Assembly: GCF_054482595.1 (NCBI RefSeq) | Contig: NZ_CM137008.1 | DNA length: 64,000 bases | Strand: one strand, 5' to 3' | Shown: positions 1 through 12,990 of the stretch, piece by piece | How the letters are laid out: the number at the start of each line of letters is the position of its first letter | How positions within the stretch are numbered: position 1 is the stretch's first letter | The notes under the pieces: model-generated | What the model was told of the DNA's origin: nothing | Databases searched by the model: none | What the model saw: only the letters and a program-made list of their open reading frames with translations | Translations under genes and position numbers: made by a program

Positions 1-819
1 GACCATCCGAACCCTTTAGCCGCACGCCAGGCTATTTGCGACATATTCCTTAAACGCATCGTTAAAGGGAAAGGGCTGGATGTCATTGTTGATAAAACAG
101 GCGAAGAACCAATGCCGACACCATGGACGGTCTTTGAACTGGTCAAGGCAATCAGTAACGTCGATCACAGCTGGAAAGAGTTCATGCTGATCGACATGGG
201 CGGCGCAACCACCGATGTTTATTCCGCCTGTGCCAACACGCTCTCGCCCGACACCGTTTTACACGGCGTACCGGAACCCTTCGTAAAACGGACGGTGGAA
301 GGCGATCTGGGAATGCGCGTCTCGGCAGTGGTGGTTGGTGAAAGTGCGAAAGAGTTAGTCAATGTGAATTTTGCTCAGCAACCCGCACAGCTGGACGCTT
401 TTTATCATTACCTCCGTCATCTAGTCGCTCATCCCGACTACTTACCCGCAAATGCAGAAGAGAAATATTTCGATACCGTCCTGGCCGGACTGTGTGTGGG
501 TTATGCCACCGAAAGACATGCGGGCACCAAAAAAGAGGTCTGCACCTGCGTCGGCAATGTCGATTTACAGATGGGACGTGACCTGACAACCGTGCGTAAA
601 GTCGTCGGATCCGGCGGATGGCTCTCGCGTGCCAGTCAGTTCGATATGCATCACTGGTTGAAATTCCGCGAGTTAAACGACGACGGTAAACGCATTCTCT
701 TACCGACCGAATTTGAATATTACCGCGATTCCCGGGGGCTATTACCACTGCTGGCAAACGTCGCCAGAGTCGATCCGCTGGCCGCCGCGCGCACCAGTAT
801 TCAATGCTTAACCCTATAA
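1..819 (+). CDS. glmL: Glutamate mutase-associated protein GlmL/MutL (reactivating chaperone-like), 5'-truncated by the window edge
   Basis: Frame 1 is open from nt 1 to the stop at 817-819 (the listed ORF begins at an internal Met at 112). It lies directly upstream of glmE in the conserved glmL-glmE-mal order known from Clostridium glutamate mutase operons. Confidence 0.7.
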   Translation, partial: DHPNPLAARQAICDIFLKRIVKGKGLDVIVDKTGEEPMPTPWTVFELVKAISNVDHSWKEFMLIDMGGATTDVYSACANTLSPDTVLHGVPEPFVKRTVEGDLGMRVSAVVVGESAKELVNVNFAQQPAQLDAFYHYLRHLVAHPDYLPANAEEKYFDTVLAGLCVGYATERHAGTKKEVCTCVGNVDLQMGRDLTTVRKVVGSGGWLSRASQFDMHHWLKFRELNDDGKRILLPTEFEYYRDSRGLLPLLANVARVDPLAAARTSIQCLTL

Positions 820-837
820 CAATTAAGGCTGCAATCA

Positions 838-2283
838 ATGGAACTTCGAAATAAGAAATTAACCCATGACGAATTCATGACCGAGCGGCAACAGGTACTG
901 AAAACCTGGGAAACCGGCAAGGATGTTGAAAACTTTGAAGATGGCGTTAAATACCAACAAAACATTCCTGAGCATAAACGCTTCTCTCATGCCCTGCTGA
1001 AAGCAGACAAGGAAGGTAACACCCTTAGCCAACCGCGCGCAGGTGTGGCGCTGATGGACGAACACATCGAACTACTGAAAACACTGCAAGAAGAGTGCGA
1101 TCTGCTGCCGAGCACTATCGATGCATATACCCGTCTGAATCGGTACGAAGAAGCGGCTGTAGGGATTAAAAAATCCATCGAAGCCGGAACCTCTAAACTG
1201 AACGGTTTACCGGTAGTTAACCACGGCGTCGCAGCTTGCCGTCGCCTCACCGAAACCCTGCAAAAACCGCTACAGATCCGCCACGGCACGCCAGATGCGC
1301 GTCTGCTGGCTGAAATCTCGATGGCCAGTGGCTTTACCAGTTATGAAGGCGGCGGCATTTCCTACAACATTCCGTATGCCAAACGCGTAACGCTGGAAAA
1401 ATCGATCCGCGACTGGCAGTACTGCGACCGTTTAATGGGGATGTATGAAGAACACGGGATCCGCATCAACCGCGAACCGTTTGGCCCACTAACAGGTACG
1501 CTGATCCCGCCGTTTATCTCGCACTCTATCGCGATAATCGAAGGCTTGCTGGCGCTGGAACAGGGTGTGAAATCTATCACCGTTGGTTATGGACAGGTCG
1601 GCAGCCTGACGCAGGATGTTGCGGCGATCCAGTCTCTGCGTGAACTTGCACACGAATATTTTCAGAGCTATGGCTATACCGACTATGAATTAAGTACCGT
1701 GTTTCACCAGTGGATGGGCGGCTTTCCGGAAGACGAATCGAAAGCGTTCGCTATTATCTCATGGGGCGCAGCCGTCGCGGGGATGTCTGGTGCCACCAAA
1801 GTCATCACCAAAAGTCCGCACGAAGCCTGGGGCATCCCGACTGCCGCTGCCAACATTCAGGGGCTGAAAGCCTCCCGCCAGATGCTCAACATGGTCAACG
1901 AGCAGAAATTCCCGCCGTGCCCTGCGGTTGAACTGGAAATTGAACTGATTAAGAGCGAGGTTCGCGCGGTACTGAATAAAGTGTTCGAACTGGGTAATGG
2001 TGATATTGCGCGCGGTACGGTGCTGGCATTTGAAGCGGGCGTACTGGATGTGCCGTTTGCGCCAGCCGCCTGCAACGCGGGCAAAATTCTTCCGGTCCGA
2101 GACAACACCGGCGCGATACGCGTACTGGAAGCCGGAGCCGTTCCATTGCCAAAAGATATTCTCGACCTCCACCACGATTACGTTGCGGAACGCGCACGCT
2201 TTGAAGGACGCCAACCGACATTCCAGATGGTTGTAGATGACATCAATGCTGTATCCCACAGTAAATTAATAGGAAGACCATAA
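838..2283 (+). CDS. glmE: Glutamate mutase E (epsilon, catalytic) subunit, methylaspartate mutase
   Basis: 481 aa; the translation aligns along its length with my recollection of Clostridium GlmE (MEL.NKK..., PRAGVALLDEHIELL, GGGISYN.PYAK, TVFHQWMGGFP.DESKAF, SFQMV.DDI.AV). Stop overlaps the mal start (TAATG). Confidence 0.9.
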   Translation: MELRNKKLTHDEFMTERQQVLKTWETGKDVENFEDGVKYQQNIPEHKRFSHALLKADKEGNTLSQPRAGVALMDEHIELLKTLQEECDLLPSTIDAYTRLNRYEEAAVGIKKSIEAGTSKLNGLPVVNHGVAACRRLTETLQKPLQIRHGTPDARLLAEISMASGFTSYEGGGISYNIPYAKRVTLEKSIRDWQYCDRLMGMYEEHGIRINREPFGPLTGTLIPPFISHSIAIIEGLLALEQGVKSITVGYGQVGSLTQDVAAIQSLRELAHEYFQSYGYTDYELSTVFHQWMGGFPEDESKAFAIISWGAAVAGMSGATKVITKSPHEAWGIPTAAANIQGLKASRQMLNMVNEQKFPPCPAVELEIELIKSEVRAVLNKVFELGNGDIARGTVLAFEAGVLDVPFAPAACNAGKILPVRDNTGAIRVLEAGAVPLPKDILDLHHDYVAERARFEGRQPTFQMVVDDINAVSHSKLIGRP

Positions 2284-3524
2284 TGAAAATAAAACAGGCT
2301 CTGTTCACCGCTGGCTACTCCTCATTCTATTTCGATGACCAGCAGGCGATAAAAAACGGAGCGGGTCATGACGGCTTTTTTTATACTGGGGAGCCGGTAA
2401 CACAGGGGTTTAACACCGTACGTCAGGCCGGGGAGTGCGTATCGGTACAGTTGATTCTGGAAAACGGCGCGGTCGCTGTAGGTGACTGTGCTGCCGTACA
2501 GTATTCTGGGGCAGGTGGTCGCGATCCACTGTTCCTCGCAGAGCACTTTATTCCGTTCCTCAACGACCATATCAAGCCATTACTGGTAGGCCGCGATGTG
2601 GATGCTTTCCTGCCGAATGCCCGTTTCTTCGACAAATTGCGTATTGACGGCAACTTGCTGCATACCGCCGTGCGCTACGGATTATCACAGGCGCTGCTTG
2701 ATGCTACCGCGCTGGCAACCGGCCGTCTGAAAACTGAAGTGGTCTGTGATGAATGGCAGTTGCCACGCGTGGCGGAATCCATTCCATTATTTGGTCAGAG
2801 CGGCGACGATCGATATATCGCCGTCGATAAGATGATCCTTAAAGGCATCGACGTGCTGCCCCATGCGCTGATTAATAACGTCGAAGAGAAGCTGGGCTTT
2901 AAAGGTGAAAAACTGCGCGAATATGTCCGCTGGTTGTCGGATCGCATTCTAAGCAAGCGCACCAGCGCACGCTACCACCCTACCCTGCACATCGATGTAT
3001 ACGGCACTATCGGTCTGATCTTCGATATGGATACGCTTCGCTGTGCGCAATACATCGCCAGCCTGGAAAAAGAAGCGCAAGGCCTGCCGCTCTACATTGA
3101 AGGGCCGGTCGATGCCGGTAACAAGCCCGATCAAATTCGCCTGCTGACCGCGATTACCAAAGAGCTGACGCGCCTCGGTTCCGGCGTGAAAATTGTGGCC
3201 GATGAATGGTGTAACACCTACCAGGATATTGTTGATTTCACTGATGCCGCCAGTTGTCACATGGTGCAAATCAAAACCCCGGATCTGGGCAGTATTCACA
3301 ACATCGTCGATGCGGTTCTTTACTGCAATAGCCACAGCATGGAAGCGTACCAGGGCGGCACCTGCAATGAAACTGATGTCAGTGCCCGCACCTGTGTCCA
3401 CGTCGCCCTTGCCGCTCGCCCCATGCGTATGCTGGTAAAACCAGGGATGGGCTTTGACGAAGGCCTCGATATCGTCTTCAACGAAATGAATCGTACTATC
3501 GCGCTGTTGCAGGCTAAGGATTAA
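2283..3524 (+). CDS. mal: 3-methylaspartate ammonia-lyase (methylaspartase)
   Basis: 413 aa, N-terminus MKIKQALFTAGYSSFYFDDQQAIKNGAGHDGF... matches enterobacterial methylaspartase (Citrobacter-type) as I recall it; enolase-superfamily length; 1-nt overlap with glmE. Confidence 0.9.
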   Translation: MKIKQALFTAGYSSFYFDDQQAIKNGAGHDGFFYTGEPVTQGFNTVRQAGECVSVQLILENGAVAVGDCAAVQYSGAGGRDPLFLAEHFIPFLNDHIKPLLVGRDVDAFLPNARFFDKLRIDGNLLHTAVRYGLSQALLDATALATGRLKTEVVCDEWQLPRVAESIPLFGQSGDDRYIAVDKMILKGIDVLPHALINNVEEKLGFKGEKLREYVRWLSDRILSKRTSARYHPTLHIDVYGTIGLIFDMDTLRCAQYIASLEKEAQGLPLYIEGPVDAGNKPDQIRLLTAITKELTRLGSGVKIVADEWCNTYQDIVDFTDAASCHMVQIKTPDLGSIHNIVDAVLYCNSHSMEAYQGGTCNETDVSARTCVHVALAARPMRMLVKPGMGFDEGLDIVFNEMNRTIALLQAKD

Positions 3525-3527
3525 CAA

Positions 3528-4898
3528 ATGGCTCGTTCTTTTAAAGTCTTATCGCCAACGGCAATCCTCGGGTATGGATTCCCGGAAGAGAGCTTCCGCA
3601 AAGCGATGGCAGAATCGCCCGATCTGATCGCCGTTGATGCAGGCTCTTCCGATCCAGGCCCCCACTACCTCGGGGCAGGCAAACCGTTTACCGATCGCGC
3701 AGGGGTCAAGCGCGATCTGCGCTATATGATCACCGCAGGCGTGCAAAATAATATACCGGTGGTGATCGGAACGGCTGGCGGTTCTGGTGCCGCACCACAC
3801 CTGGAGTGGTGCCGAGAAATAATTCATGAGATTGCCCGGGAAGAGCACCTCTCGTTCTCGATGGCGTTGATCCCGGCAGACGTTGACAAAGCCATCGTCC
3901 ACCAGGCGCTGGATAACGGCAAAATCACGGCGCTGGATTTTGTCCCGCCGTTAACCCACGACGCGATTGACGAAAGTACGTATATCGTCGCGCAAATGGG
4001 CATCGAACCCTTCCAGCGGGCGCTGAAAGAACGCGCGCAAGTGGTGCTGGGCGGGCGCGCTTACGACCCGGCCTGCTTTGCTGCGCTCCCGATCATGCAA
4101 GGCTTTGATGAAGGTCTGGCGCTGCATTGTGGGAAAATCCTTGAATGCGCGGCAATCGCCGCAACGCCCGGCTCAGGCTCTGACTGTGCGATGGGCATCA
4201 TTGATGACAACGGCTTTACGCTGAAGACATTTAATCCGAAGCGTAAATTTACCGAAACGTCAGCAGCTGCACACACACTGTATGAGAAATCCGATCCCTA
4301 CTTCCTGCCAGGACCTGGCGGCGTGTTGAACCTGAAAGGCTGCACATTTAAAGCAGTCAATGACGGCGAAGTCTACGTCAGCGGTTCTAAGCATGAAGAA
4401 ACGCCGTATGCCCTGAAACTGGAAGGTGCACGACGGGTGGGCTTCCGCTGTCTGACCATCGCCGGAACGCGCGACCCGATTATGATCGCCGGGATCGATA
4501 AAATCATCGATGAAGTCAAAACCAGCGTTTCGCGTAACCTGTCGCTCGACGATGACAGCATTCGCATCAATTTCCACCTGTACGGCAAAAACGGGGTGAT
4601 GGGAGACCATGAACCGATGCAAACTGCCGGGCATGAGCTGGGGATTGTCCTTGATGTAGTTGCACCGACCCAGGAAATTGCCAACAGCGTTTGCTCGCTG
4701 GTGCGCTCTACCATGCTGCACTACGGCTATGAAAACCGCATCGCTACCGCAGGTAATCTGGCGTTCCCGTTCTCCCCTTCTGATATCCAGGGCGGGCCGG
4801 TATACGAATTTTCCATATATCACCTGATTGAAGCCAACGACGCTCTGCGTTTTGATTTCCATATTGAACAGGTGACGCCAGAAGGAGTTCAGGCATGA
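3528..4898 (+). CDS. DUF1446 family protein (AtuA-like), function unknown
   Basis: 456 aa; motifs resembling the AtuA/DUF1446 family (GGRAYDPACFAALP..., GKILECAA); starts 4 nt after the mal stop with no promoter space. Family assignment is from memory, not a search. Confidence 0.6.
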   Translation: MARSFKVLSPTAILGYGFPEESFRKAMAESPDLIAVDAGSSDPGPHYLGAGKPFTDRAGVKRDLRYMITAGVQNNIPVVIGTAGGSGAAPHLEWCREIIHEIAREEHLSFSMALIPADVDKAIVHQALDNGKITALDFVPPLTHDAIDESTYIVAQMGIEPFQRALKERAQVVLGGRAYDPACFAALPIMQGFDEGLALHCGKILECAAIAATPGSGSDCAMGIIDDNGFTLKTFNPKRKFTETSAAAHTLYEKSDPYFLPGPGGVLNLKGCTFKAVNDGEVYVSGSKHEETPYALKLEGARRVGFRCLTIAGTRDPIMIAGIDKIIDEVKTSVSRNLSLDDDSIRINFHLYGKNGVMGDHEPMQTAGHELGIVLDVVAPTQEIANSVCSLVRSTMLHYGYENRIATAGNLAFPFSPSDIQGGPVYEFSIYHLIEANDALRFDFHIEQVTPEGVQA

Positions 4899-5212
4899 AA
4901 CAGTCAATTGTCTCACTGGCGCAAGTCATTCGTTCGAAAAATGCCGGACCTTACGAACTGGTTTTAGATATTTTATTTAAAACGAAAGAAAACTATGAGC
5001 GAGTTAAATCATCAGGGCAATTAACCCCAGAACTGATTGCGCGCTTATATCATGTTGAACCTGACTTTATTCATCGTATTGTCTGGTTTGATCCTTCTAA
5101 CGCAGTAAAAATCGTCATGCCACGAGATATTATCTCCGGGAATGTAGGTGACAATGATGTCTATGGTGCACAGCAACATGCACCTTTATTAAATATGAGT
5201 TTCGATTTGTAA
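4895..5212 (+). CDS. DUF4387-like small protein, usual partner of DUF1446/AtuA-like proteins
   Basis: 105 aa; start ATG overlaps the stop of the upstream DUF1446 gene (ATGA), implying translational coupling; motif IRSKNAGPYELVLDI... resembles DUF4387 as recalled. Confidence 0.55.
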   Translation: MKQSIVSLAQVIRSKNAGPYELVLDILFKTKENYERVKSSGQLTPELIARLYHVEPDFIHRIVWFDPSNAVKIVMPRDIISGNVGDNDVYGAQQHAPLLNMSFDL

Positions 5213-5295
5213 AAATCCGAATACTTTTAGCCAACTGACATCCCGTCACTTATTGCAGTTCAACACTTCAGCTATTTGTAAGGTTGTAATAGCAG

Positions 5296-5327
5296 GTAGA
5301 TGCCTGAATCTCTATTCAGGCATCTAC
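5296..5327 (+). terminator. Perfect 14-bp-stem hairpin (gtagatgcctgaat-ctct-attcaggcatctac) followed by a U-rich tract; putative terminator/attenuator
   Basis: Read directly from the sequence between the DUF4387 stop (5212) and the transporter start (5373); arms are exact reverse complements. Confidence 0.5.
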
Positions 5328-5372
5328 TTCTCCTGATTCTGATTTATCGCCGTGCACCTGATGGAGGAAAAA

Positions 5373-6653
5373 ATGAAGACAATAAGTTTAACCACGATGA
5401 TTCTTTTGGCGCTGGTACTTGGAATGATTATCGGCGTAGTGCTCAATAACACTGCTTCACCGGAAACCGCAAAACTCTATGCGCAAGAAATATCGATATT
5501 CACGACGATTTTCTTACGACTGATAAAAATGATTATCGCTCCGTTAGTGGTCTCTACCCTGGTGGTAGGTATTGCTAAAATGGGCGATGCCAAAGCCCTT
5601 GGTCGTATTTTTTCTAAAACACTCTTTTTATTTATTTGCGCCTCATTGCTGTCAATTGCCTTAGGCTTGATAACGGTAAATTTCTTCATGCCAGGTACAG
5701 GAATTAATTTTGTTGCACACGGTGCCGAAACCACCGGAGTGGTCGCGGCAGAACCCTTTACGCTAAAAGTATTTATTTCGCATGCTTTCCCCACCAGCAT
5801 TGTCGATGCCATGGCGCACAATGAAATTTTGCAAATCGTGGTGTTCTCAATTTTCCTCGGCTGTAGCCTGACGGCGATTGGCGAGAAAGGCAGCGCCATC
5901 GTTCACGCCTTAGATTCGCTGGCACATGCCATGTTAAAGCTGACTGGCTACGTCATGCTCTTCGCTCCCCTGACCGTATTCGCTGCTATTTCAGCATTGA
6001 TTGCTGAACGAGGACTGGCAGTTATGGTGAGCGCCGGGATCTTTATGGGTGAATTTTATTTCACCATGTTATTACTTTGGGTGCTGCTTATCGGTCTGGC
6101 CATCGTTTATGTCGGCCCCTGCATCAGACGCCTGACCCGCGCCCTTTCGGAACCCGCCCTGCTGGCATTTACCACATCCAGTTCTGAAGCGGCTTTTCCG
6201 GGAACGCTTGAAAAACTGGAGCAATTTGGCGTTTCCCCCAAAATTGCCAGCTTTGTCTTACCCATTGGCTACTCATTTAATCTCGTTGGATCAATGGCCT
6301 ACTGCTCCTTCGCTACAGTTTTCATCGCCCAGGCCTGCAATATCCATTTATCCATCGGTGAACAAATCACCATGCTGTTGATCCTGATGTTGACCTCGAA
6401 AGGAATGGCTGGCGTACCACGCGCCTCAATGGTGGTTATCGCCGCCACGCTCAACCAGTTCAATATTCCGGAAGCGGGGCTGATCTTGCTGATGGGCGTT
6501 GATCCGTTCCTTGATATGGGGCGTTCCGCGACAAACGTCATGAGCAACGCAATGGGCGCTGCGATGGTGAGTCGGTGGGAAGGCGAACATTTCGGCGAGG
6601 GCTGTCGGGGTAAAGCATTAAAACCCAATGAATCGAACGTTGCTCTGCCCTGA
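5373..6653 (+). CDS. Dicarboxylate/amino acid:cation symporter (DAACS family; GltP/DctA-like), probable glutamate or C4/C5-dicarboxylate uptake
   Basis: Hydrophobic multi-TM translation typical of the GltP/DctA family. I chose ATG 5373 (MKTISL...) because GGAGG at 5363-5367 sits 5 nt upstream; the listed ORF starts at GTG 5352. Confidence 0.75.
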   Translation: MKTISLTTMILLALVLGMIIGVVLNNTASPETAKLYAQEISIFTTIFLRLIKMIIAPLVVSTLVVGIAKMGDAKALGRIFSKTLFLFICASLLSIALGLITVNFFMPGTGINFVAHGAETTGVVAAEPFTLKVFISHAFPTSIVDAMAHNEILQIVVFSIFLGCSLTAIGEKGSAIVHALDSLAHAMLKLTGYVMLFAPLTVFAAISALIAERGLAVMVSAGIFMGEFYFTMLLLWVLLIGLAIVYVGPCIRRLTRALSEPALLAFTTSSSEAAFPGTLEKLEQFGVSPKIASFVLPIGYSFNLVGSMAYCSFATVFIAQACNIHLSIGEQITMLLILMLTSKGMAGVPRASMVVIAATLNQFNIPEAGLILLMGVDPFLDMGRSATNVMSNAMGAAMVSRWEGEHFGEGCRGKALKPNESNVALP

Positions 6654-6760
6654 GGGGGATCTTAAGCAATCAGAAGCCAATGACTACGCATTTTTATAAG
6701 CCGGATCATGAAGTTAGACGGCAATTAAGTAACACTAACGTTTAAGGTGAAAAGTGAAAT

Positions 6761-8413
6761 ATGTCCAAACCATTTATCTGGCAAGAACCGTTTCTACAAA
6801 ATAAAGACGGTACAGAATATACATTAATTAGCGATCAGCATATTACAGTAACGGAATTAGACGGCGAAGAAGTGATAAAAATTGCTCCTGAAGCATTAAC
6901 GCTGCTTGCCCGGCAGGCATTTTATGAAGCCTCTTTTTTCTTACGTTCCGCTCATTTGCAACAGGTCGCCAGCATTCTTAACGATCCGCAGGCCAGTAGT
7001 AATGATAAATACGTTGCGTTGCAGTTATTACGTAATGCTGAAGTCTCAGCAAAAGGGGTATTACCCAACTGTCAGGATACCGGCACCGCAACTATTATTG
7101 CCAGTAAAGGGCAACAGATATGGACCGGAGGTAACGACGCCGAAGCCTTAAGCAAAGGCATTTACACCACTTTTCAGGAAAATAATCTGCGCTTTTCACA
7201 AAATGCGCCGCTGGATATGTATACCGAAGTCAATACGCAAACCAATCTCCCGGCGCAGATTGATATCAGCGCTGTCGCTGGTGATGTGTACCATTTTCTC
7301 TGTGTTAATAAAGGGGGCGGCTCCGCCAATAAAGCCGCGCTTTATCAGGAAACCAAATCCTTATTGCAACCAGAAAAACTGACCGCATTTTTAATCGAAA
7401 AAATGAAATCGCTGGGCACCGCTGCCTGCCCGCCTTACCACATCGCCTTTGTCGTCGGAGGGCTTTCAGCCGATCAAACCTTAAAAGTTGCCAAGCTGGC
7501 CTCAACGAAATATTACGACAATTTGCCCACCAGCGGAAACGAGCAGGGACAAGCATTCCGTGATATTGAGCTGGAAAAAGCGTTGCTCGAGGCCAGTCAG
7601 CAATTTGGTATTGGTGCACAATTTGGGGGGAAATATTTCGCTCATGATATTCGCGTCATTCGTCTGCCGCGTCACGGTGGCTCTTGCCCGATAGCTATGA
7701 CGCTCTCCTGTTCTGCCGATCGCAATATCAAAGCAAAAATTAACAAACACGGTATCTGGCTGGAAAAACTCGAACACAATCCGGGGCAATATATTCCAGC
7801 CTCATTGCGGGAAGAAAATCACGCGCAACATGTACAACTGGATCTAAACCGTCCGTTGCGTGACGTGATGCTGGATCTCGCCAGATTACCGGTAGGTACC
7901 CGCGTGTCGTTAAGTGGTCCCATCGTAGTGGCGCGCGATATCGCCCACGCCAAAATAAAAGCGCGGCTGGATAGCGGCGAATCGATGCCGGAGTACCTGA
8001 AGCATCATATTGTCTATTACGCTGGCCCGGCGAAAACACCGGAGAACATGGCCTGCGGTTCACTGGGTCCAACCACGGGCGGTCGAATGGACGGTTATGT
8101 CGATACCTTCCAGGCAGCTGGCGGCAGTCTGGTGATGTTATCGAAAGGTAACCGCAGCCAGCAGGTCACCGATGCCTGTCACAAACATGGCGGCTTCAAT
8201 CTGGGAAGTATTGGCGGTGCAGCTGCGTTACTGGCGCAAGAATATGTCAAAAGTCTGCGTTGCCTGGAATACCCGGAGCTGGGTATGGAAGCGGTGTGGA
8301 TGATGGAAGTGGAAAATCTGCCCGCATTCATCCTGGTAGATGATAAAGGCAATAATTTCTTTAGTCAGTTTGAGCAGCAACATCGCTGCGCCAGTTGCCC
8401 TGCGGGACATTAA
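6761..8413 (+). CDS. fumD: Class I (Fe-S) fumarate hydratase family protein, likely mesaconase/fumarase FumD
   Basis: 550 aa; N-terminal half with Cys-containing motifs (PNCQDTGTA) and C-terminal half typical of FumA/FumB-type hydratases; sits in the methylaspartate cluster, where mesaconate hydration is the expected next step. Confidence 0.8.
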
Positions 8414-8422
8414 GGAAAATGA

Positions 8423-9025
8423 ATGGAAGCGCGAATTTCAACTGAACGGCATGTGCAGCGCCAACAGAAATTGAAGGAACAGGTCGATACGCGCGTCGCA
8501 GCGGCGATAGAGAAAAAAGGGATCTTGATTGTTTTCACCGGCAACGGCAAAGGGAAATCCACTGCCGCGTTTGGTACTGTGACGCGCGCGGTGGGTCATG
8601 GCAAAACGGTGGGGGTTGCGCAGTACATCAAGGGGCAATGGGACAACGGCGAATACAACCTTCTCCAGCCGCTGGGGGTTGAGTTTCATATAATGGGAAC
8701 CGGTTTTACCTGGGAGACTCAGAACCGGCAAGCGGATATCGACGCGGCGAAAGAGATCTGGTCGGAAAGCAAACGGATGCTGGCTGACAAGCGTTACGAC
8801 TTAGTGGTGCTTGATGAGCTGACCTATATGCTGGCTTACCATTATCTGGATACCGAAGAAGTGATCGCTTCTCTGCAAAACCGCCCGGCACAACAAAGTG
8901 TCATTGTCACCGGACGCGGTTGCCACAGTCAGATATTAAAAATGGCGGATACGGTAAGCGAAATCCGCCCCGTCAAACATGCTTTTGATAACGGCATACA
9001 GGCCCAGCCGGGTATCGACTGGTAA
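8423..9025 (+). CDS. ATP:cob(I)alamin adenosyltransferase (CobA/BtuR family)
   Basis: 200 aa; P-loop region IVFTGNGKGKSTAAFG and overall similarity to BtuR/CobA as recalled; SD AAGGA upstream; 9 nt after the fumD stop. Confidence 0.8.
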   Translation: MEARISTERHVQRQQKLKEQVDTRVAAAIEKKGILIVFTGNGKGKSTAAFGTVTRAVGHGKTVGVAQYIKGQWDNGEYNLLQPLGVEFHIMGTGFTWETQNRQADIDAAKEIWSESKRMLADKRYDLVVLDELTYMLAYHYLDTEEVIASLQNRPAQQSVIVTGRGCHSQILKMADTVSEIRPVKHAFDNGIQAQPGIDW

Positions 9026-9032
9026 TAACTGC

Positions 9033-9051
9033 GCCTGGCATCCCGCCAGGC
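9033..9051. terminator. Short hairpin (gcctgg-N7-ccaggc) between the convergent stops of the adenosyltransferase gene and the LysR gene; possible bidirectional terminator
   Basis: Inverted repeat read from the sequence; the flanking U-tract is weak. Confidence 0.35.
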
Positions 9052-9058
9052 ACAGGTT

Positions 9059-9964
9059 TTACATCTCCTGCGGTACGACCGATTTCGCCAGCATCCATTC
9101 ACGAAATTGCTGCAAGTGCGGTGAGTCAGACTTCTCTTCCTGCCACGTCATAATAAAACGATTACCGGTACGAATAGGCACATCACAGGGGATCACCATA
9201 TCGCCACTATCCAAATCATGTTGAATAGCGAACCGTGGTAACAGCGCCACGCCGAGATTAGAGCGCACGGCGGCAATCAGCATTGAAAGCAAATCGAAAC
9301 GTGGTCCGTTATTGACCAGCGGACTGCTAACGCCAGATAAAGCAAACCACTCTTCCCAGCCAGTAATACGGGTGCTTTGATGCAGAAGCGGTAACTCAGT
9401 AAGCAGTTCTGCCACTGACAGCTTTTGATCGGACATTGCAAGCAAACTGCCGCTGCATACCGGCAAAATCTCCTCATCAAAGAGATATTCTACTTCCGCC
9501 CAGGGCGCGCAAAAATTTTCGCGCATAATGACAGCATCGTACTCCCGATTAAGAAAATCGCCGTTATTAGCTAAAGAATGAATATTAACAATAATATCGG
9601 GATGTAACTTTGTGAATTCATGTAAATTTGGGATCAACCAGTGGGTACTAAAAGTAGGATTAACGGCAAGTTCAATAACCTGAACCGTAGGCTGCCAGGT
9701 CATAATGGTATTGGTATCGCGTTCCAGCTTATTTAATGTTTCTTTTACTATCCCCAGGTAATACTTCCCTGTATCATTAAGAAAAATGCGTTTTTTAGAG
9801 TGTGAAAATAACGGAGTACGTAAAAATTCCTCCAGCGCACTTACTTGTCTGAATACTGCACTTTGGGTTAACGCTAACTCCTCTGCCGCTCTGGTATAAC
9901 TTTCATGACGTGCGACGACCTCAAAAGTCACCAGCAGTTCCGTTTTAGGTATTTTCCCTCGCAT
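9059..9964 (-). CDS. LysR-family transcriptional regulator
   Basis: 301 aa; N-terminal HTH typical of LysR-type regulators (FEVVARHESYTRAAEELALTQSAVFRQVSALEE) and a C-terminal substrate-binding-like domain. Confidence 0.85.
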   Translation of the reverse strand: MRGKIPKTELLVTFEVVARHESYTRAAEELALTQSAVFRQVSALEEFLRTPLFSHSKKRIFLNDTGKYYLGIVKETLNKLERDTNTIMTWQPTVQVIELAVNPTFSTHWLIPNLHEFTKLHPDIIVNIHSLANNGDFLNREYDAVIMRENFCAPWAEVEYLFDEEILPVCSGSLLAMSDQKLSVAELLTELPLLHQSTRITGWEEWFALSGVSSPLVNNGPRFDLLSMLIAAVRSNLGVALLPRFAIQHDLDSGDMVIPCDVPIRTGNRFIMTWQEEKSDSPHLQQFREWMLAKSVVPQEM

Positions 9965-10530
9965 AATGCCGTCCCTTAAAAATAGTTTAAACCATCAAAA
10001 ATACATTACTTATTACGAAGTAATGGTAACCAAAGCAGCAATAAATAATTTATAAGAATCATGATTGACATTTATAAACCAGTAAGGCTGGCGTGACAAA
10101 TATCTTAATCAGATAATAATAATCCGAAAAGCACAGCGCCTTTCGAATTATCCGGAATCACATTAAGTGAAAATTATTAAATTGATATCATTTATCATAT
10201 CTGTGGATATTATGATAAACAATCAACAAAGATTTTATTTTTGATTTATAGCATATCCATCTAAGAATTTTTGCGATGCTGCAATATCCGGGGTAAAGAC
10301 CCGATCCTGGCTGACAAATGGCACGACTTGACGAAAAGCGGTGAACATCGCTTTTGTTGATTTACTTAACGCTACGGTCAAACGCTGGGAAGCCAGTGCA
10401 TCAGGTAACGATTCGAAATTCGCCGTCGTTCTTATTCGTGGCTTGCGGTCGGTCGCGGCAATCCACAGTGGCTGTGGTCATGCAGTCAAGCCTGCAGTCA
10501 GATTTCGACCGTGGTTAACCGTTTAAGACA

Positions 10531-10557
10531 TAAAAAAGGCCATCATACGATGGCCAA
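10531..10557 (-). terminator. Intrinsic terminator of the sdh-suc operon
   Basis: GC hairpin followed by a U-run on the minus strand (A-run 10532-10537 on plus). Confidence 0.7.
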
Positions 10558-10630
10558 CCATGTCGAAACCGACAGCCCTTCGCCATTCCTGTAGAGGGAA
10601 GCGGCGAGGGCTATTTCTTATTACAGATAT
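10531..10630 (-). ncRNA. sdhX: sucD 3'UTR-derived sRNA (SdhX/RybD-like), ending at the sucD intrinsic terminator
   Basis: About 100 nt between the sucD stop (10631-10633) and a terminator hairpin (ggccatc-atacg-atggcc, 10538-10556) with a U-run on the minus strand. That SdhX is made from the sucD 3'UTR is established knowledge; identity was not verified by alignment. Confidence 0.5.
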
Positions 10631-11500
10631 TTATTTCAGAACAGTTTTCAGTGCTTCACCGATATCCGCCAGGCTGCGAACGGTTTTCACGCCTGCGGCT
10701 TCCAGAGCAGCGAATTTCTCATCCGCAGTCCCTTTCCCACCGGCAATGATGGCACCCGCGTGGCCCATACGTTTGCCTTTCGGCGCAGTCACACCAGCGA
10801 TGTAACCCACAACTGGCTTGGTAACGTGCTCTTTGATGTACGCAGCTGCTTCTTCTTCAGCGCTACCGCCGATCTCACCGATCATCACGATCGCTTCGGT
10901 CTGCGGATCTTTTTCGAACATTTCGAGAATGTCGATAAAGTTAGAGCCAGGGATCGGGTCACCGCCGATACCGACACAGGTCGACTGACCGAAACCGTAA
11001 TCCGTGGTCTGTTTAACCGCTTCATAGGTCAGTGTACCGGAACGGGAAACGATACCCACTTTACCCGGTTTGTGAATGTGACCCGGTTGGATACCAATTT
11101 TGCATTCACCCGGGGTGATAACGCCTGGGCAGTTCGGGCCGATCATACGAACGCCGGCTTCATCCAGTTTCACTTTCACAGTCAGCATATCCAGCGTCGG
11201 GATGCCTTCAGTGATGGTGATAATCAGTTTGATGCCTGCGTCGATGGCTTCCAGAATGGAGTCTTTGCAGAACGGTGCTGGTACGTAGATAACAGAAGCG
11301 GTAGCGCCAGTAGCAGCAACAGCTTCACGCACTGTGTTGAACACCGGCAGGCCGAGGTGGGTAGTACCGCCTTTACCTGGGGTTACGCCGCCAACCATTT
11401 TAGTGCCGTATGCAATGGCCTGTTCTGAGTGGAAAGTCCCCTGGCTACCGGTAAAGCCCTGGCAGATAACCTTGGTGTTTTTATCAATTAAAATGGACAT
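10631..11500 (-). CDS. sucD: Succinyl-CoA synthetase alpha subunit
   Basis: 289 aa, translation matches E. coli SucD as recalled ([45 protein letters not shown]...). Confidence 0.97.
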
Positions 11501-12750: not shown

Positions 12751-12990
12751 CGTAGGCCTGATAAGACGCGCAAGCGTCGCATCTGGCATCGCTTGTCGGA
12801 TGCGGCGCAAGCGCCTTATCCGACCTACATCGGTGCTCCCCGTAGGCCTGATAAGACGTGTAAGCGTCGCATCAGGCATCGCTTGTCGGATGCGACGCGA
12901 GCGCCTTATCCGACCTACATCGGTGCTTCCCGTAGGCCTGATAAGACGCGTTAAGCGTCGCATCAGGCTTCAATTGCCGGAGAAGGCGAT
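12751..12990. repeat. Tandem ~90-bp BIME/REP array (about 2.5 copies) in the sucB-sucC spacer
   Basis: Unit starts at 12751, 12841 and 12931 (cgtaggcctgataagacg...); each unit holds REP-type palindromes (gcctgataagacg / cggatgcggcg...cgccttatccg). Confidence 0.85.

Follow-up and report, generated by a model that had tools for sequence, protein, structure and literature searches.

The first 10.5 kb of a 64,000-nucleotide stretch of Escherichia coli DNA (NCBI RefSeq assembly GCF_054482595.1, contig NZ_CM137008.1; hereafter the window) belong to the enterobacterial methylaspartate-pathway cluster, a chromosomal accessory module located in the interval between sucD and cydA. We consider it very probable that this cluster encodes a four-step, adenosylcobalamin (AdoCbl)-dependent module converting glutamate into pyruvate, acetate and ammonia. 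In the proposed route, a dicarboxylate/amino acid:cation symporter (DAACS) would import the substrate, presumably glutamate, and a CobA-type enzyme would convert salvaged cob(I)alamin into AdoCbl. Glutamate mutase (GlmS-GlmE), kept active by GlmL, would then rearrange (S)-glutamate to (2S,3S)-3-methylaspartate, from which Mal would release mesaconate and ammonia; the oxygen-sensitive Fe-S enzyme FumD would add water to mesaconate to give (S)-citramalate, and CmlAB would cleave (S)-citramalate into pyruvate and acetate. A LysR-type regulator would switch the genes on in response to some signal. All four steps are most probably encoded, because cmlAB matches a solved citramalate lyase and the core genes are colinear across taxa.

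Positions 1-10529 of the window carry intact open reading frames (ORFs) in the order glmL (3′ part), glmE, mal, AtuA/DUF1446, DUF4387, symporter, fumD, adenosyltransferase and LysR. The original prediction, made from the letters alone, had listed these genes in this order, and the ORF list, NCBIfam and Pfam agree with it in every item. Its first three methylaspartate steps stand as well; its end point at mesaconate/citramalate probably does not, as the DUF1446-DUF4387 pair matches the citramalate lyase CmlAB. Window positions 1-10630 differ from E. coli strain XH990 at 2 bases (665 and 9094), and many other genomes match the same segment at 100.0% reported identity. In XH990 the complete order is cydA, two hypothetical ORFs, glmS, glmL, glmE, mal, AtuA, DUF4387, symporter, fumarase, cobO, LysR (reverse) and sucD (reverse). 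The parts upstream of window position 1, namely glmS, the first 570 nt of glmL, the two hypothetical ORFs and the cydA-side boundary, were read in this strain. The island spans about 14 kb, and its right-hand 10.5 kb fall within the window.

The assignment of the last step rests on the two genes that follow mal. The first, cmlA (3528-4898, + strand; AtuA/DUF1446 family, Pfam PF07287), is the putative large subunit of a citramalate lyase unrelated to CitDEF, and the second, cmlB (4895-5212, + strand; DUF4387, Pfam PF14330 at 134 bits), overlaps it by 4 nt and is the putative small subunit. No NCBIfam model matches either ORF; in RefSeq/PGAP annotation they appear as ‘acyclic terpene utilization AtuA family protein’ and ‘DUF4387 domain-containing protein’. 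CmlA matches chain A of PDB entries 9ERQ/9EVF (E 1e-291; 420 of 456 residues identical, 92.1%) and CmlB matches chain B of 9ERQ (E 5e-57), which the depositors named ‘Citramalate lyase, subunit A (cmlA)’ and ‘Citramalate lyase, subunit B (cmlB)’. Both entries were released on 2025-10-22, and 9ERQ is a complex with citramalate. The PDB sequence is identical to the homologue of Klebsiella michiganensis DSM 25444, itself encoded in the same cluster beside sucD, and the solved CmlAB has been described as coming from Raoultella planticola (bioRxiv 10.64898/2026.01.16.699985). An engineered strain given FumA and CmlAB alone grew on mesaconate in a Cml-dependent manner, with label reaching acetyl-CoA (preprint). 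The functional assignment thus draws on the depositors’ naming, on the citramalate ligand in 9ERQ and on a preprint that used the 92% identical enzyme as a tool, and citramalate cleavage is probably the function of the E. coli orthologue too. No ORF in 1-10530 matches the citrate/citramalate lyase families to which the classical acyl carrier protein (ACP)-dependent CitDEF lyase belongs.

Conservation of gene neighbourhood points the same way. A CmlA scan of species-representative genomes, with synteny tabulated by tblastn, returned 61 loci; wherever a locus is long enough to show it, mal, cmlA and cmlB almost always stand side by side, across four phyla, and cmlB follows cmlA in every case. 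The complete series glmS-glmL-glmE-mal-cmlA-cmlB is colinear in more than 50 loci, comprising Escherichia, Klebsiella, Citrobacter, Enterobacter, Lelliottia, Buttiauxella, Salmonella, Yersinia, Morganella, Hafnia and Budvicia, as well as Aromatoleum and Azoarcus (Rhodocyclales; 70% identity), Telmatospirillum, Desulfotomaculum copahuensis, metagenome-assembled genomes (MAGs) of Clostridiales/Bacillota, and Dictyoglomaceae (49% identity). Two loci of the scan, L006 (‘MAG: Collinsella sp.’) and L065 (‘Marinilabiliaceae bacterium JC040’, a 384-bp contig), carry cmlA regions 99% and 90% identical to enterobacterial ones and are most likely binning or contamination artefacts rather than cases of horizontal transfer.

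The glutamate mutase and methylaspartase genes are assigned by profile and by structure. The partial glmL, also called mutL (3′ 819 nt at 1-819, + strand; glutamate mutase accessory/reactivating protein), covers positions 223-456 of TIGR01319 at 459 bits (cut-off 204); the gene starts about 570 nt before the window, and in XH990 it is annotated at full length, directly preceded by glmS. The XH990 GlmS product starts MKKATLVIGVIGADCHAVGNK, and its DxHxxG cobalamin-binding motif reads D-C-H-A-V-G. The catalytic (epsilon) subunit of the AdoCbl-dependent mutase is encoded by glmE (838-2283, + strand), which scores 863 bits against the TIGR01503 equivalog (cut-off 390) and aligns end to end with the Clostridium cochlearium glutamate mutase (6H9E/1CCW, E 6e-191). 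GlmE has R67, R99, R148 and E170, which we take to be the substrate-binding arginines and glutamate of the clostridial enzyme, and from these features we infer glutamate mutase activity in E. coli. The 3-methylaspartate ammonia-lyase gene mal (2283-3524, + strand), whose start overlaps the glmE stop by 1 nt, reaches 544 bits against TIGR01502 (cut-off 286), and its product aligns with the MAL structures of Citrobacter amalonaticus (1KKO, E 5e-269) and C. tetanomorphum (1KCZ), ungapped over residues 1-409. All ten active-site and metal residues checked are present (Q172, H194, D238, E273, D307, Q329, K331, T360, C361 and L384). Mal activity has been shown by others on close homologues, the O157:H7 and Citrobacter proteins, and a 2025 preprint reports the O157:H7 enzyme to be functional in vivo (bioRxiv 10.1101/2025.11.12.688011).

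The hydration step would fall to fumD (6761-8413, + strand), a class I [4Fe-4S] fumarase homologue with predicted mesaconase/fumarase activity that scores 1273 bits against NF011921 (cut-off 1060). Its Cys104, Cys223 and Cys317 lie within the motifs CQDTG, ACPPYH and SCSADR, and the protein matches the Leishmania class I fumarate hydratase 5L2R over residues 18-536. Assayed as a recombinant protein, FumD of O157:H7 ATCC 700728 acts both as a mesaconase and as a fumarase and prefers mesaconate 2-3-fold (PMC4682846). The window protein is identical to that of an O157:H7 genome at 540 of 550 residues (98%), and a mesaconase role of this variant is thereby supported through its characterised lineage. 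The name ‘FumD’ is also borne by a different protein, K-12 YdhZ (P0ACX5); a proteomics report of ‘FumD’ up-regulation in O157:H7 concerns that protein, and we rejected it as evidence of expression. Downstream lies the cobO/cobA-type ATP:cob(I)alamin adenosyltransferase gene (8423-9025, + strand; TIGR00708, cob(I)yrinic acid a,c-diamide adenosyltransferase, 245 bits against a cut-off of 168). Its product matches Salmonella CobA 1G5R (E 3e-88) and has the P-loop GNGKGKST, so that the AdoCbl-synthesis enzyme of the original prediction is borne out as CobA-type. The translations of GlmE, Mal, FumD and the adenosyltransferase all match characterised enzymes over their full length, so that the alignment check named in the original prediction does not refute it.

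The cluster is organised in two parts. Spacing between glmE, mal, cmlA and cmlB is −1, +3 and −4 nt, pointing to a single, translationally coupled unit, and a 160-nt gap separates cmlB from the symporter gene. This gap contains a hairpin (5294-5329, + strand; inverted repeat I12) with a perfect 14-16-bp stem and no T-run (−25.6 kcal/mol, z −4.7). Klebsiella, Citrobacter, Salmonella and another Escherichia species have a GC-rich hairpin of unrelated sequence in the same gap, and in Yersinia and Hafnia the gap hairpin has a T-run like that of intrinsic terminators; across genera the structure is kept while the sequence is not. The 5294-5329 hairpin is probably a partial terminator or an RNA-stabilising element separating two transcriptional modules. 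Composition, divergence and placement all differ between the halves: the symporter-fumD-cobO-lysR half has a GC content of 43-49%, against 53-56% in glmE-mal-cmlAB, and its synonymous divergence (dS) from another Escherichia species is 1.2-1.9 versus 0.2-0.7. Yersinia has fumD and lysR beyond glmS, at the opposite end of the cluster; near the clusters of Morganella, Hafnia and Budvicia both genes are absent; and two Escherichia species have the cluster without symporter and cobO. On these grounds we distinguish two modules of different history, a conserved core (glmSLE-mal-cmlAB) and a variable accessory set.

This division is also where an alternative use of the genes gains its footing. The DAACS protein could import a C5-dicarboxylate or amino-dicarboxylate from outside the cell, for example mesaconate, (S)-citramalate or 3-methylaspartate, instead of glutamate, with FumD and CmlAB as the core of the route and Mal and the mutase as feeders or a side branch. 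The separate history suggested by GC content and the higher dS of the symporter-fumD-cobO-lysR half, the displacement or absence of fumD and lysR in the four genera just named, and the ability of FumA and CmlAB alone to sustain an engineered strain on mesaconate all speak for it, as does a symporter slightly nearer the DctA profile than that of GltP. We nevertheless consider it unlikely, in that cmlAB is linked to glmSLE-mal, and not to fumD or the symporter, in every lineage examined, a dedicated B12 adenosyltransferase would be useful only to glutamate mutase, and the glutamate mutase genes are under strong purifying selection. The symporter gene itself (5373-6653, + strand; alternative ORF start 5352), placed in the DAACS family by family profiles, has GGAGG 7 nt before the ATG at 5373. 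It was called GltP in Fig. 5 of PMC4682846, and its substrate is presumably glutamate.

Selection bears on whether the cluster has a function in E. coli at all. The ratio of nonsynonymous to synonymous divergence (dN/dS) is 0.03-0.2 for all nine genes in comparisons with O157:H7, another Escherichia species and Klebsiella grimontii, and every cluster gene is under purifying selection. A silent, decaying remnant without current function would be consistent with the lack of expression or activity in O157:H7 ATCC 700728 under several conditions (PMC4682846), and some lineages do hold leftovers, such as only glmS plus an insertion sequence (IS) in E2348/69 and only a 486-bp glmE fragment in one genome. 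This explanation is nonetheless very improbable: 80% or more of the cluster survives in 1118 genomes, at no less than 97.7% DNA identity and with intact ORFs, the low dN/dS extends to within-species comparisons, and all catalytic residues checked are intact.

Control of the cluster is presumed to lie with the LysR-type regulator (9059-9964, − strand), which is convergent with cobO and GcvA-like (221 bits against the GcvA subfamily, below the 288 cut-off). The gene co-occurs with the cluster in most Enterobacteriaceae loci. In Aromatoleum and Azoarcus a 44-45% identical LysR gene is directly divergent from glmS, an arrangement by which its role as core-operon regulator is supported, not proven.

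From sequence we infer that the pathway would run in vivo in E. coli, anaerobically and with external B12. An external corrinoid would be needed because E. coli lacks de novo B12 synthesis (see also bioRxiv 10.1101/2025.11.12.688011), and anoxia because class I fumarases have an oxygen-labile Fe-S cluster (PMC4682846). Several points weigh against the glutamate route as drawn. The most direct are physiological: O157:H7 ATCC 700728 showed no anaerobic growth on glutamate and no stimulation by it, and neither methylaspartase nor citramalate lyase activity was detected in O157:H7 extracts (PMC4682846). In vivo operation in E. coli is unproven, given that these 2015 attempts at growth and activity were negative. 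The glmS gene lies outside the window and is present in XH990, the strain differing at 2 of 10630 positions. The symporter falls below the cut-offs of both DctA (NF002461, 314 versus 513) and GltP (NF008440, 299.6 versus 638), so that of the predicted glutamate/dicarboxylate symporter the family holds and the glutamate specificity is presumed. No sigma-70-like promoter was found on the + strand in the cmlB-symporter or symporter-fumD gaps, in a promoter/terminator scan whose hits were no more frequent than in shuffled sequence and which tells nothing about activator-dependent promoters. For CmlAB, we found no primary paper in the literature searched, and the presence of AMPPNP, an ATP analogue, in 9ERQ raises the possibility that ATP takes part in the reaction. 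CmlAB may use it, for example, through an acyl-phosphate intermediate, which would be new lyase chemistry. CmlA has invariant glycine-rich segments (G81, A83-G85 and G87; D37, G39-S40 and D42-P45) that could be phosphate-binding loops.

The missing lyase activity in O157:H7 extracts also underlies the idea, raised by the 2015 authors when no lyase was known, that the pathway ends at (S)-citramalate or mesaconate, secreted to act on the host or on competitors (PMC4682846). We give this hardly any weight, since the island encodes CmlAB directly after mal in a translationally coupled arrangement, CmlAB is conserved with the pathway across phyla and under purifying selection, and the extracts came from cells that were not expressing the cluster, methylaspartase activity having gone undetected too. 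All three alternatives find little support. More tentatively, and with rather more doubt than conviction, we propose that carriers use gut glutamate as a self-sufficient source of carbon, nitrogen and energy in a B12- and anaerobiosis-dependent manner, with the genes silenced through LysR in laboratory media until a host or microbiota signal arrives. If this were true, LysR silencing would explain the negative results of 2015, and the island would be a niche determinant, for instance of O157:H7 in cattle.

To place the cluster within the species, we searched 5426 complete E. coli genomes with window positions 838-9964. The cluster was matched in 1134 genomes; in 1118 (20.6% of all) the match covers 80% or more of its length, at 97.7-100% identity and with intact ORFs. 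The cydA-proximal end of the island (hypA-hypB-glmS) has matches in 1135 genomes and K-12 mngRAB in 3884. K-12 carries sucD, sdhX, mngR, mngA, mngB and cydA at this site, and the presence of mngRAB there, together with the cluster in only 1118-1134 of the 5426 genomes, confirms the predicted accessory character. Sources of genomes carrying the window cluster include healthy duck, otter, river water and food. Beyond E. coli, sucD is again the neighbour of the cluster in Klebsiella, Citrobacter, Salmonella enterica subsp. arizonae and diarizonae, and Pseudescherichia.

Within E. coli we distinguish at least five states of the sucD-cydA interval. K-12 has mngRAB and the window has the glm island; strain Esc18 combines mngRAB (91% identity) with an intact tetratricopeptide repeat (TPR) protein gene in cydA-proximal position (L067, 23659-24852), and CFT073 has a TPR pseudogene alone (L068, 1683-2798). 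The fifth state is a hybrid found in a derivative of the enteropathogenic E. coli (EPEC) strain O127:H6 E2348/69, with the order sucD, mngR, truncated mngA, ISEc13, glmS, hypB, hypA and cydA (L066, 9003-14279). This structure suggests descent from an ancestor with both cassettes followed by IS-mediated deletion, or recombination at IS copies. Inspection of the ORF list and a repeat scan found no integrase, IS, transposase or flanking direct repeats in the window part of the island, and its right boundary is the sdhX terminator, not a tRNA. Given this lack of integrase, IS and repeats and the same sucD-side position in other genera, we regard the cluster as one of the states that a variable chromosomal interval can take rather than as a mobile-element island; of the original ‘accessory island’, the first word therefore holds, and a mobile-element sense of the second is not supported.

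On the right, alignment to K-12 shows identity through sucD, the 101-nt sdhX and its terminator, and homology breaks at about 10529/10530, the point at which K-12 continues into mngR. Both the end coordinate of 10530 in the original prediction, accurate to 1-2 bases, and its naming of mngR as the K-12 neighbour agree with this break. Beyond it lie the small RNA sdhX with its terminator (sucD 3′ untranslated region, 10530-10630, − strand; identical to K-12 sdhX but for one 3′-end base; terminator hairpin at 10555-10538) and sucD (10631-11500, − strand, from the ORF list). The sdhX gene is core-genome flank outside the island and marks its right boundary. Between the LysR start and this boundary, an AT-rich non-coding spacer (9965-10529; 39% GC) presumably holds the lysR promoter. 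Its DNA is similar only to that of other Escherichia species (L035 and L049), not of Klebsiella or Citrobacter; the idea of a gene remnant in this 566-bp LysR-sdhX spacer was dropped after comparison with other genera, as only other Escherichia species share it.

The left boundary falls beyond the window, at a distance of roughly 400-500 bp from the cydA start codon on its upstream side. Comparison of cydA upstream DNA (L001, about 8180-8700, versus L003, 8612-9459) places the left junction inside it, with only the proximal 400-500 bp common to K-12, so that island carriers may differ from K-12 in the distal regulatory DNA of cydAB. The island in its E. coli form also includes, ahead of glmS, two hypothetical ORFs (L001, 8986-9930 and 10012-10434; 314 and 140 amino acids) that lie in AT-rich DNA and matched nothing in NCBIfam or PADLOC. 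Outside E. coli they were found only in loci resembling those of Escherichia (L005, and L007 for hypA alone, at 50% identity), not in other genera. No Rfam family, the cobalamin riboswitch included, was detected in the island or upstream of glmS. The only Rfam hits lie outside the island, between sucC and sucB: two tandem repetitive extragenic palindromic (REP)-type elements (Rfam naRNA4, 74.8 and 67.3 bits; 12755-12825 and 12845-12915, − strand). Strains differ in how many REP elements this spacer inside the operon contains, its length being 365 bp here and only about 93 bp in O157:H7 strain 7636, in CFT073-like strains and in E2348/69.

These results matter for annotation: RefSeq lists the two lyase genes of more than 1000 E. 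coli genomes under the labels ‘AtuA family’ and ‘DUF4387’, which hides the probable completeness of the pathway. What is physiologically at stake is when E. coli expresses this pathway and whether it benefits gut colonisation by O157:H7 and other carriers. The sucD-cydA interval also illustrates on a small scale how one chromosomal site can hold different metabolic cassettes, one for mannosylglycerate use and another for glutamate breakdown.

The same cluster was described in Enterobacteriaceae by Kronen and Berg (2015, PLoS One; PMC4682846), so the original prediction was right that it had been described in pathogenic E. coli; it has been known since 2015, and the citramalate step then open has since been filled by others. 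The gene order GlmS, GlmL/MutL, GlmE, Mal, DUF1446, GltP, FumD, CobA and LysR-type transcriptional regulator (LTTR) is the same here. In the legend of its Fig. 5, that paper named GltP, FumD, CobA and LTTR and placed a DUF1446 gene downstream of mal; it gave DUF1446 no function, did not mention DUF4387 and left the fate of citramalate open (PMC4682846). The two estimates of prevalence are comparable: 26.5% of E. coli in 2015, when 90.6% of O157:H7 strains were also reported to carry the cluster, and 20.6% of complete genomes now. All carriers were (opportunistic) pathogens in PMC4682846, whereas those found here include isolates from the healthy duck, otter, river water and food. Compared with O157:H7 copies, the cluster DNA is 99.1% identical and nothing substantive differs in sequence. 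What the present analysis adds is the complete-pathway reading, the parts outside the window, the multi-state interval, the wide colinearity and the FumD name collision. Relative to the CmlAB of 9ERQ/9EVF, the window pair is the E. coli orthologue, known here from sequence.

The clostridial methylaspartate pathway of C. tetanomorphum and C. cochlearium comprises GlmSE, MutL, Mal, MesAB and a CitDEF-type citramalate lyase. Its four chemical steps are the same as those proposed here, and GlmE and Mal are clear orthologues. The remaining two enzymes differ: the mesaconase of the cluster is a single-chain, FumA-like class I fumarase instead of the two-subunit MesAB, and citramalate cleavage is assigned to CmlAB (AtuA plus DUF4387) instead of an ACP-containing CitDEF-type lyase. 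Beyond the clostridial set, the E. coli cluster has its own adenosyltransferase, DAACS transporter and LysR regulator. With the haloarchaeal methylaspartate cycle it shares glutamate mutase and methylaspartase. That cycle converts mesaconate to mesaconyl-CoA with a coenzyme A (CoA)-transferase and a hydratase (PMC5592240); the cluster described here has no genes for such a CoA-transferase and hydratase, and its mesaconase and lyase would act on the free acids.

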